Positions 39,706 to 44,040 of a stretch of DNA of 64,000 nt are shown here, piece after piece. Under the pieces are notes generated by a model. It worked only from the letters and a program-made list of their open reading frames with translations, was not told the DNA's origin and did no database searches. The position numbers and the translations under genes were made by a program. The number at the start of each line of letters is the position of its first letter. Positions within the stretch are counted from its first letter, which is position 1. This DNA is from Dehalococcoidia bacterium (lineage in GTDB: Bacteria > Chloroflexota > Dehalococcoidia > UBA6926): NCBI GenBank assembly GCA_965205915.1, contig OZ242191.1, positions 853,410 through 917,409 on the forward strand. The letters are read 5' to 3'.

Positions 39706-39778
39706 TGGAGCCGAGGGGATTCGAACCCCTGACCCCCTGCTTGCAAAGCAGGTGCTCTCCCGACTGAGCTACGGCCCC
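39706..39778 (-). tRNA. tRNA-Ala (anticodon UGC)
   Basis: Manual fold: acceptor GGGGCCG/CGGCTCC with the G3:U70 Ala identity pair, D-arm GCTCAGTCGGGAGAGC, anticodon loop TTTGCAA, T-arm AGGGGTTCGAATCCCCT, discriminator A. A partially encoded CC follows. Confidence 0.85.
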
Positions 39779-42858: not shown

Positions 42859-43013
42859 TTAGTAATGCTCCCTGCGTGCGCGGATGGAAAAGCTGTTTCG
42901 GTGGGCAGTCCGGCGCGCTACTCGCCGCGCCGCGAACGCCTCATACGTATAGTTCATGCTCTGTTGTCATTCTACGGAGTGGCGGTAAGGCATGGCAAGG
43001 GAGAGAGGGACGT

Positions 43014-43415
43014 TCAGGATGGGGCGGTAATCAAATCGATGCCCGGCACACGAGGGAAGTCGGTGTCGGAGGTGGCCAATGGGCAGCCAAGAAAAACGGC
43101 CGTTGCGGCTATCCATGCGTCGGGTTGCTTGAGGGCCCTGCCGACTCTTATACGCAATTGGGCAGAAATCTCCGCGAGTTGCCGATTCGGCCAGAATACC
43201 TCATACCTATCGATGTGCTGGGCCAGGGTGTTGCGTCGCCGGTCATCCCAGTTTTCAGCCAATGGCCACGCGAGGATCTCTTCCAGCGTCTGGAATGAAA
43301 TCACAAGGCGCTTCTCCGCCAGTTCCCGCCCATAGAATCCAGCCTGTTCATGCCCATTGAACAGGTAAACGACAACGTTTGTATCAACGACCACCTGTTC
43401 AGATGGCTGGATCAT
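43014..43415 (-). CDS. vapC: PIN-domain toxin (VapC-like)
   Basis: VVDTNVVVY N-terminal Asp and a later ATSDTDF acidic block. 133 aa. 4-nt start/stop overlap with the upstream RHH gene. Confidence 0.7.
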   Translation of the reverse strand: MIQPSEQVVVDTNVVVYLFNGHEQAGFYGRELAEKRLVISFQTLEEILAWPLAENWDDRRRNTLAQHIDRYEVFWPNRQLAEISAQLRIRVGRALKQPDAWIAATAVFLGCPLATSDTDFPRVPGIDLITAPS

Positions 43416-43972
43416 GCTCCATCCCGAGCCTCGCGCACGGAACGGATGAATCCGTCGACGTCCAGTGGCCAGTCTGCCCTAATCACGTTTGCTGGATCGA
43501 ATGGCGGTTTGGGCGACTGCCTGATCGCCCGGAGGGCATCAGGAGGGGTGGCCCAATCGGTCGCGCCCCGGACCTCTTCAACTCTTACCACCTTCCAGTT
43601 TCCCTCAGCGTCGAAGTGTCCTGTACCGCGCAGTTCGACATGCGCCGAGGCAAGACGCGTTATTTCGTCCCTGAGAGACTCATCAAACTCCAGACTTACG
43701 GGCTTCTCGCCATATTGGTCAATTACCGCCGTCCCTCTGGACAGATTGATCTCTTTCAATTGGCCAAAGAGTATGGCTCCGGTTCCCTGCGAATCACCGG
43801 TTTGCCCAGAGCTTGCGGCGCTGTTTAGCCGCGCGCGGTTCGAGACATACTCTTCCACTGCCTCGCGAATCACAGCGCTGCGCGAGCAACCCTCCGTTGC
43901 GGCCGCCTCATCAATCCTCTTGGCAAGGTCCGCCGATGCTGTGAACGTAATGTTCTGAGATTGTTGAGCCAT
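43412..43972 (-). CDS. ribbon-helix-helix (CopG/VapB-like) antitoxin with an unusual ~140-aa C-terminal extension
   Basis: N-terminal ITFTASADLAKRIDEAAATEGCSRSAVIREAVEEYV RHH motif. Then a Ser/Gly linker and an uncharacterised C-terminal region. 186 aa total, versus 70-90 aa for typical VapB. Strong aaggag RBS. Confidence 0.6.
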   Translation of the reverse strand: MAQQSQNITFTASADLAKRIDEAAATEGCSRSAVIREAVEEYVSNRARLNSAASSGQTGDSQGTGAILFGQLKEINLSRGTAVIDQYGEKPVSLEFDESLRDEITRLASAHVELRGTGHFDAEGNWKVVRVEEVRGATDWATPPDALRAIRQSPKPPFDPANVIRADWPLDVDGFIRSVREARDGA

Positions 43973-44040
43973 GAGTTGGCGAACTCCTTTGGAATCTGCC
44001 GCCCATCTTACCGCGAACGGTGGAGGGGCGTGATAATCCC

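Follow-up and report, generated by a model that had tools for sequence, protein, structure and literature searches.

A probable VapBC-type gene pair of a Dehalococcoidia bacterium whose ribbon-helix-helix antitoxin carries a conserved module with a predicted OB-fold

Results

Two overlapping genes lie on the minus strand of a 64,000-nt stretch of the genome of a Dehalococcoidia bacterium (Chloroflexota; GenBank assembly GCA_965205915.1, contig OZ242191.1, positions 853,410 to 917,409); we call this whole stretch the window, and positions are counted from its first letter. The upstream gene encodes a protein of 186 amino acids (aa) that starts with a ribbon-helix-helix (RHH) domain, and the downstream gene encodes a 133-aa PIN-domain protein; we refer to them as the antitoxin and the toxin of a putative VapBC-type pair (Table 1). 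The long C-terminal region of the antitoxin was found to be a conserved module, predicted to form an OB-fold followed by a tail, and genes carrying this module lie directly upstream of one subfamily of PIN proteins in at least five phyla, with many uncultured, apparently marine bacteria among the hosts.

A preliminary description, made from the letters of this DNA alone, had proposed a VapC-like PIN toxin paired with a long RHH antitoxin, translated from a strong aaggag ribosome-binding site, coupled to the toxin gene by a 4-nt overlap and carrying, after a standard CopG/RHH N-terminus and a Ser/Gly-rich linker, some 125 residues of no recognisable family. All of these elements were recovered by profile searches and by inspection of the sequence. 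The N-terminus of the antitoxin, as translated, reads MAQQSQNITFTAS, and its ATG is the earliest start codon available in the open frame. Residues 8-43 matched Pfam RHH_1 (PF01402) with 37.6 bits against a gathering cut-off of 20.5 (E 1.9e-9), covering profile positions 2-37 of 39; the domain (residues 7-47) includes a beta-strand, NITFTAS, as well as the motif G-C-S-R-S-A-V-I-R, and its helices were placed by AlphaFold2 at residues 12-25 and 31-55. The RHH domain also matched CopG/Arc-like repressor families of PHROGs, and CopG-family chains of the PDB matched residues 6-56 weakly (E 0.03-1.2). On the minus strand, the junction of the two genes reads ...GGA GCA TGA / ATG ATC...

Table 1. Features of the antitoxin-toxin cassette, in window positions
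Feature	Position	Strand	Basis
Antitoxin gene, 186 aa (RHH, Ser/Gly linker, OB-fold, tail)	43412..43972	-	Open reading frame listing; Pfam RHH_1; frame kept in 14/15 variants
PIN-domain (VapC-like) toxin gene, 133 aa	43014..43415	-	Pfam PIN, E 6.1e-17
ATGA stop/start overlap, 4 nt	43412..43415	-	Read from the sequence; fits translational coupling
AAGGAG ribosome-binding site, 11 nt 5' of the antitoxin ATG	43984..43989	-	Sequence; same in 6 strains
Intergenic region, 68 nt, from fumarase stop to antitoxin start; presumed promoter/operator	43973..44040	-	98% mean column identity, 6 strains
RHH (CopG-type) DNA-binding domain, residues 7-47	43832..43954	-	Pfam RHH_1; PHROGs; AlphaFold2 helices
Ser/Gly-rich flexible linker, residues 51-63, SAASSGQTGDSQG	43784..43822	-	AlphaFold2 confidence (pLDDT) <50 at residues 56-59
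Predicted OB-fold, residues 64-137, order b1-b2-b3-helix-b4-b5	43562..43783	-	AlphaFold2 pLDDT 89-97; Foldseek; BFVD
Middle tail, residues 138-164, PPDALRAIRQSPKPPFDP, window version of PFDxxAFxNDPNPKxFDP	43481..43561	-	Family alignment and consensus
Terminal segment, residues 165-186, RADWPLDVDGFIRSVREARDGA; amphipathic helix 172-185	43415..43480	-	Conservation; AlphaFold2; co-variation with PIN

The toxin scored 62.8 bits with the Pfam PIN model, for which the cut-off is 23.6, and is 42-54% identical to the PIN proteins encoded downstream of the module elsewhere. Across 54 of these partner PIN proteins, D11, E46, D99, D117 and D119 were invariant and E45 was kept in 95%; all of these residues are present in the window PIN, and because it retains all catalytic acidic residues, the pair is probably active. 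Some PIN proteins of this subfamily carry the NCBI name VapC-family toxin. The defence models of PADLOC-DB gave no match for either protein at E values up to 1.

A gene of this length could have arisen in assembly, if a short RHH antitoxin and a separate downstream gene had been joined by a sequencing or assembly frameshift, and the module does occur as a separate gene of about 140 aa in other genomes. The cluster of the antitoxin itself holds 16 members with 91-99% identity, however, and 14 of the 15 listed variants keep the same length of 186 aa in independent assemblies, which include several closed contigs of ~2.4-2.5 Mb; the linker is free of stop codons in every variant. The odd variant out (P0015; L092:3445-3933) is frameshifted to 162 aa on a contig with 1x coverage, most likely through a sequencing error. 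Moreover, fusions of the module to AbrB, of similar length (177-183 aa), recur independently. The frameshift artefact is ruled out by this conservation of the frame, and we give it practically no chance; the long open reading frame (ORF) of the preliminary description is one gene, which no frameshift splits. The pair lies between the fumarase gene and sufC in 8/8 contigs recovered. Substitutions among strains were concentrated in the linker (residues 51-63), and dN/dS was uninformative with 3-6 differences only.

The structure prediction that had been suggested for the C-terminal region was run with AlphaFold2 on an alignment of 57 sequences, with the antitoxin as a monomer. The mean predicted local distance difference test (pLDDT) score was 80, with 89-97 over residues 61-140; a single-sequence run reached a pLDDT of 41 and was unusable. 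The model contains strands at residues 64-76, 81-85 and 92-96, a helix at 98-106 and strands at 111-120 and 126-136, and we are confident in assigning residues 64-137 to a predicted OB-fold, a five-stranded barrel with a helix between strands 3 and 4. When the model was compared with the PDB using Foldseek, the top matches were all OB-fold proteins (E 1e-4 to 3e-3, probability 1.00), among them the archaeal and human RPA small subunits (RPA14), Ten1 of CST, the N-terminal OB domains of AspRS and LysRS, single-stranded DNA-binding proteins (SSBs), the large subunit of ExoVII and YgiW; structural matches in BFVD were SSBs and tRNA_anti-like proteins. The OB core has a net charge of -5 and an isoelectric point (pI) of 4.9 in the window copy, against a median charge of -1 in the family, and the tail is acidic across the family (median -5). 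In the middle tail, F158 is invariant and a helix was predicted at residues 145-152 (pLDDT 59-77). The terminal helix was modelled with a pLDDT of 82-90. In the family alignment, D171 and F175 are invariant and V172, D173, E181 and R183 nearly so, and the hydrophobic face of the window helix is formed by V172, F175, I176 and V179.

Beyond residue 57, the antitoxin had no Pfam match even at E values up to 1, and residues ~64-186 had none in Pfam, NCBIfam, PADLOC, PHROGs or the PDB sequences; no known extended VapB family was matched. A word-indexed homologue search with the whole antitoxin returned its own cluster only, and a scan of JGI metagenomes with it gave unrelated RHH-only matches alone. 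By contrast, when residues 50-186 were the query of an exhaustive phmmer search of 1.84 billion representatives (clusters at 50% identity), 114 proteins were found at E up to 1e-3, 54 of them with E no higher than 1e-10; 4 of the proteins found are repeat-protein false positives. The unit shared by the family comprises ~119 residues (66-184 in the window), over which the module hidden Markov model aligns from end to end with 133 bits. The family consensus is G.L.EVNW...TA.L.......V.LRF...L...M.RLA..YV.V.G.G.....D.W..V.V..I in the OB part and PFD...F..NP.PK.FDP...V.ASEPFDVDEF.R.I.E.R in the tail, and the window module has diverged from the other members, with which it shares 28-46% identity. 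The module profile found nothing below E 0.18 in the PDB sequences, no Pfam OB family (tRNA_anti-codon, SSB, tRNA_anti-like and others) was detected in 109 representatives at E up to 0.001, and a typical module had no tblastn match in the plasmid and phage collections.

What precedes the module varies greatly. The module start is complete in 97 representatives, of which 32 carry fewer than 40 residues ahead of it and 46 a domain of 140-199 residues, which is the commonest form. Single representatives carry MazE/AbrB, DUF2442, DUF2806 or AF2212-like heads; AbrB/MazE heads were found in P0050 and, judged by eye from near-identity to it, in loci L028, L041, L070 and L078, and DUF2442 heads recur in metagenome-assembled genomes (MAGs) of Latescibacterota and Gemmatimonadota. 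Most members have no recognisable DNA-binding head, and an RHH head was found in 0 of the other 109 cluster representatives scanned, which would place the fusion of RHH and module only in the lineage of the window.

Some members are built differently. The commonest head, of ~160 aa, had no match in Pfam or NCBIfam and nothing below E 0.18 in a profile search of the PDB sequences; its consensus is ...FEGP....GVPL.D...TL.HVQ.AVRLMV.HL.G....GRPP..VR..S.LRL..TS.GSLVAEL... (P0026, P0028 and most members of ~285 aa, e.g. L004:2506-3000), and it is a second uncharacterised domain. In P0025 (345 aa), the first half of the OB domain is duplicated, giving two module matches, one of which spans positions 1-55 only. 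A Candidatus Marinacidobacterium MAG (L075:1298-5106) has three tandem or overlapping module ORFs (259, 657 and 440 aa from the farthest start) before a single PIN gene, which could be a duplication or a problem of assembly or frame; the closest relatives of the window module (P0024) belong to this type.

The linkage of module and PIN genes was examined in a contig scan with one genome per species, which confirmed 142 places and returned 80 loci. The locus sample was drawn with a 10-sequence alignment and is biased to members with the motifs ASEPFD and NPNPKIFD. Nearly all loci are from MAGs, of Dehalococcoidia, other Chloroflexota including Caldilineaceae, Latescibacterota, Acidimicrobiia, Spirochaetia and Acidobacteriota; the naming of the MAGs (SB066x, COS, APA, Langseth bins, Aquatic Symbiosis-style isolates) hints that the family may be concentrated in sponge-associated ones. 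For 83 loci, the called ORFs were scanned for the module profile and for homologues of the window PIN. A full-length homologue of the window PIN lay directly downstream on the same strand of 61 of the 86 module ORFs, and a shortened one lay downstream of 11; there was none after 13, and the contig ended after 1. A PIN homologue is thus the direct downstream neighbour in 72 of 85 assessable loci, and the gap between the genes is mostly -4, -7 or -1 nt in related loci. From the PIN side, where a profile of the partner PIN proteins matched over 5,000 clusters (90% identity), 3/3 sampled homologues had a module gene directly upstream.

Stand-alone module genes of ~115-145 aa also have a PIN partner (L014, L025, L081 and L102), and therefore the module can be the entire partner. 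No small DNA-binding gene was found upstream of these stand-alone genes, and therefore there is no three-gene version. The preliminary description had taken the C-terminal region as an extra domain on a normal VapB, and this relation has to be turned round: the module is the conserved part, linked to a PIN gene in locus after locus whatever its head, and the RHH domain is a rare addition. In the survey of such fusions next to PIN genes that it had proposed, the module recurred in other genomes and the RHH head did not.

Further arrangements were seen around the module genes. In three Caldilineaceae MAGs (L054, L062 and L069), the module gene is intact, no PIN was detected, and an RNase PH-like gene of 241-246 aa lies ~250-300 nt downstream; these module genes appear to be orphan antitoxin-like genes. 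In a Spirochaetia MAG (L051:2461-5609), the module gene overlaps by 4 nt an ORF of 749 aa with a PIN-like start (RRVVVDTSIV) followed by what look by eye like helicase motifs, and the related locus L077 has a plain PIN at that place. Restriction-modification genes neighbour the module genes at L013:3396-6368, L064:3323-4486 and L002:4031-5087, namely a 990-aa HsdR-like ORF and a DNA methyltransferase-like ORF (both by eye) and HSDR_N-domain genes (Pfam). In L013, an unrelated-looking PIN-like ORF also lies upstream of the module gene.

The close linkage of the two genes and the coupling of their translation would suit any obligate two-subunit enzyme just as well, and the pair could instead be a housekeeping or processing RNase, with the PIN protein as the nuclease, the OB protein as its RNA-binding specificity subunit and the RHH and AbrB heads incidental. 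RNA binding is common among OB-folds, and RNA processing, for example in the exosome, employs PIN nucleases that have OB or S1 partners. However, gene order, gene sizes and the 4-nt overlap are the layout of a type II toxin-antitoxin operon, RHH and AbrB/MazE heads are hallmarks of antitoxins, and NCBI names some of these PIN proteins as VapC-family toxins. The distribution is patchy, with several copies in one genome at times (L028 and L078 share a genome), and intact module genes stand beside shortened or absent PIN genes, which fits the usual decay of toxin-antitoxin pairs. The OB domain is acidic, and the G+C content of the cassette is below that of its flanks. We therefore consider an RNase of this kind very improbable and a toxin-antitoxin pair the better description.

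Which part of the antitoxin speaks to the toxin was indicated by natural mosaics. Two loci of the Gemmatimonadota/Latescibacterota type (L095:1851-2935 and L100:1848-2935) encode antitoxins with 81% and PIN proteins with 60% identity, and the differences are not spread evenly. The upstream region, the head, the OB-fold and the middle tail have ~90% nucleotide identity, the stretch from ~20 codons before the antitoxin stop to PIN codon ~116 has 45-60%, and the rest of the PIN gene has 93-95%. On the antitoxin side, the swapped piece coincides exactly with the terminal helix, which reads VSEPFDVDEFIRIIREGRD in one of the loci and IDLTEEEWEAFHRVICEGRN in its counterpart; as read from this alignment, the end helix and the PIN core were exchanged by recombination as one unit. 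Many other pairs behave alike, with OB domains 85-97% identical, end segments 32-50% and PIN proteins 53-59%.

The same association was seen when each part of the antitoxin was compared with the PIN by partial Mantel correlation of identities in 65 antitoxin-PIN pairs with 2000 permutations. The partial r was 0.46 for the last 22 positions (reached by 0/2000 permutations), 0.30 for the OB core (0/2000) and 0.06 for the middle tail (408/2000), figures that give a ranking rather than probabilities because the pairs are related by descent. From the joint exchange and this ranking, we infer that toxin-specific neutralisation resides in the terminal amphipathic helix. The co-variation of the OB core with PIN suggests direct contact with the toxin, and the OB-fold probably touches it as well.

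The cassette is flanked upstream by a class II fumarase-type lyase gene and downstream by sufC, sufS and a NifU-like gene. Its G+C content is 0.56-0.58 (window positions 43000-44000) compared with 0.60-0.68 in the neighbouring genes, which is compatible with an insertion between the fumarase gene and the suf genes. A sigma-70-like site (TTGCCA, 18 nt, TAGAAT; 10/12 matches) at 42969-42998 on the minus strand, between the PIN stop codon and sufC, is a candidate suf promoter. A tRNA gene at 39706-39778 on the minus strand (Rfam tRNA, 72.9 bits) was the sole Rfam match across the 64-kb window.

Discussion

From the observed domain composition, conservation, gene linkage, predicted fold and joint exchange of helix and PIN, we propose, with a probability of roughly 0.6, that the locus is a chromosomal VapBC-type type II pair and that its antitoxin has three parts: an RHH domain that binds the operator, an OB-fold and an end helix that neutralises PIN. 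That the PIN protein is toxic, that the antitoxin neutralises it and binds DNA, and whatever the OB-fold may do are deduced here from sequences and models. The RHH domain would dimerise and repress the promoter of its own operon, as RHH antitoxins do. After the linker, the acidic OB-fold might serve as a folded scaffold or oligomerisation platform that also touches the toxin, a role that we put forward tentatively. The final amphipathic helix, PLDVDGFIRSVREARD, would bind the PIN nuclease and block its active site, as its co-inheritance with PIN suggests. The OB-plus-tail module would be the ancestral, self-sufficient partner of this PIN subfamily, ahead of which RHH would have been fused later in the lineage of the window, as AbrB/MazE would have been in others. 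Such a history is in line with the accepted picture of antitoxins as assemblies of independent parts for DNA binding and for neutralisation (PMC10440598).

Several observations weigh against this proposal. The VapC-type models of NCBIfam miss their cut-offs for the PIN protein (TA_toxin_VapC, 26.9 versus 80; Mtu_PIN_fam, 25.3 versus 73.6), and TA_anti_VapB_Myco reaches 16.5 versus 60 on the antitoxin, in the RHH part only. No promoter-like site and no operator repeat were found in the 68-nt region upstream of the antitoxin, in which a 4+4 palindrome, ACCGnnnnCGGT, was the sole candidate by eye; autoregulation by RHH is consequently without sequence support. The structure models are monomers, so that the contact of helix and PIN is drawn from their co-inheritance; some pairs share one end helix, with PIN proteins only ~53% identical, and the Mantel test compares pairs that are not independent. 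Because the OB core also co-varies with PIN, the labour may not be cleanly divided between OB-fold and helix.

In an alternative reading, which narrows the sensor idea of the preliminary description to the OB-fold, the end helix neutralises PIN as proposed above and the OB-fold senses a nucleic acid or a protein of a phage or the cell, thereby controlling the release or degradation of the antitoxin. The OB-fold is conserved throughout the family, whereas the N-terminus and the end helix can be exchanged, which argues that it has a job of its own; its nearest folds are OB domains that bind single-stranded DNA and tRNA, and some family members adjoin restriction-modification genes. A sensor domain beside a separate neutralising element also has a precedent in the role proposed for the Panacea domain of multidomain antitoxins (PMC10440598). 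On the other hand, the OB core is acidic in the window copy, if about neutral in the family, and the conserved Trp residues of the family and the Arg of its LRF motif are replaced in it. Among the best fold matches are RPA14 and Ten1, OB subunits whose main role is to bind proteins, and the co-variation with PIN points to the toxin as a partner. We consider such a sensing role unlikely for these reasons, if worth keeping in mind. The fuller version, in which the OB-fold is a built-in sensor that switches PIN on when it recognises single-stranded nucleic acid, a tRNA-like substrate or an invader protein, seems to us more doubtful still; if true, it would make the module family a widespread, undescribed sensing antitoxin of uncultured marine bacteria, probably associated with sponges, with swappable heads and toxin-specific helices.

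The OB-plus-tail module constantly accompanies one large PIN subfamily, which ranges over Dehalococcoidia, Caldilineaceae, Latescibacterota, Acidimicrobiia, Gemmatimonadota and other uncultured lineages. A family profile could name thousands of genes now called 'hypothetical protein' beside VapC genes. The natural mosaics, which combine the same OB domain with another end helix and PIN, are a ready test of toxin specificity and of the contribution of the folded domain.

Among known systems, the pair is closest in layout to RHH-type VapBC, such as FitAB of Neisseria and several pairs of M. tuberculosis, with which it shares the antitoxin gene in first place, the 4-nt overlap, the RHH head, a small PIN protein with the acidic residues and, as far as the co-inheritance suggests, a toxin-specific element at the C-terminal end of the antitoxin. 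Classical VapB proteins have 70-90 aa and a short, largely unfolded toxin-binding tail. Here, in contrast, a folded OB-fold of ~75 aa and a conserved motif of ~25 aa are predicted between the DNA-binding head and the terminal helix, and this is a new antitoxin architecture.

The predicted domain resembles RPA14/RPA3, Ten1 and the N-terminal OB domain of class IIb aminoacyl-tRNA synthetases in its five-stranded barrel, the helix between strands 3 and 4 and the helices after the barrel. It differs from them in sequence (8-19% identity in structural alignments, with no Pfam OB match), in its acidic character in the window and in its genomic role. Regulators of the NikR type, whose architecture underlies the sensor idea, share the order of an RHH N-terminus and a larger folded C-terminal domain; however, the NCBIfam NikR model scored 12.6 against a cut-off of 111, on the RHH domain only, and the C-terminal domain of NikR has a different, ACT-like fold and NikR has no toxin gene partner.

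A parallel in construction is offered by the PanA antitoxins (Panacea), which likewise combine a conserved folded domain with a swappable short neutralising element and variable extra domains (PMC10440598) and in which the folded domain is also found as a stand-alone antitoxin. The likeness is one of modular logic only: fold and sequence are unrelated, the Panacea family DUF4065 had no Pfam match in the antitoxin, and the module was seen with one PIN subfamily, whereas Panacea pairs with many toxin families. Since the pair falls in no curated VapB or VapC family, the module is in no library searched and no literature on an OB-fold antitoxin of PIN toxins was found, we regard the system as VapBC-like yet new in architecture. 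In function, the window locus would be an ordinary chromosomal toxin-antitoxin cassette, and the architecture of its antitoxin is the sole unusual feature.

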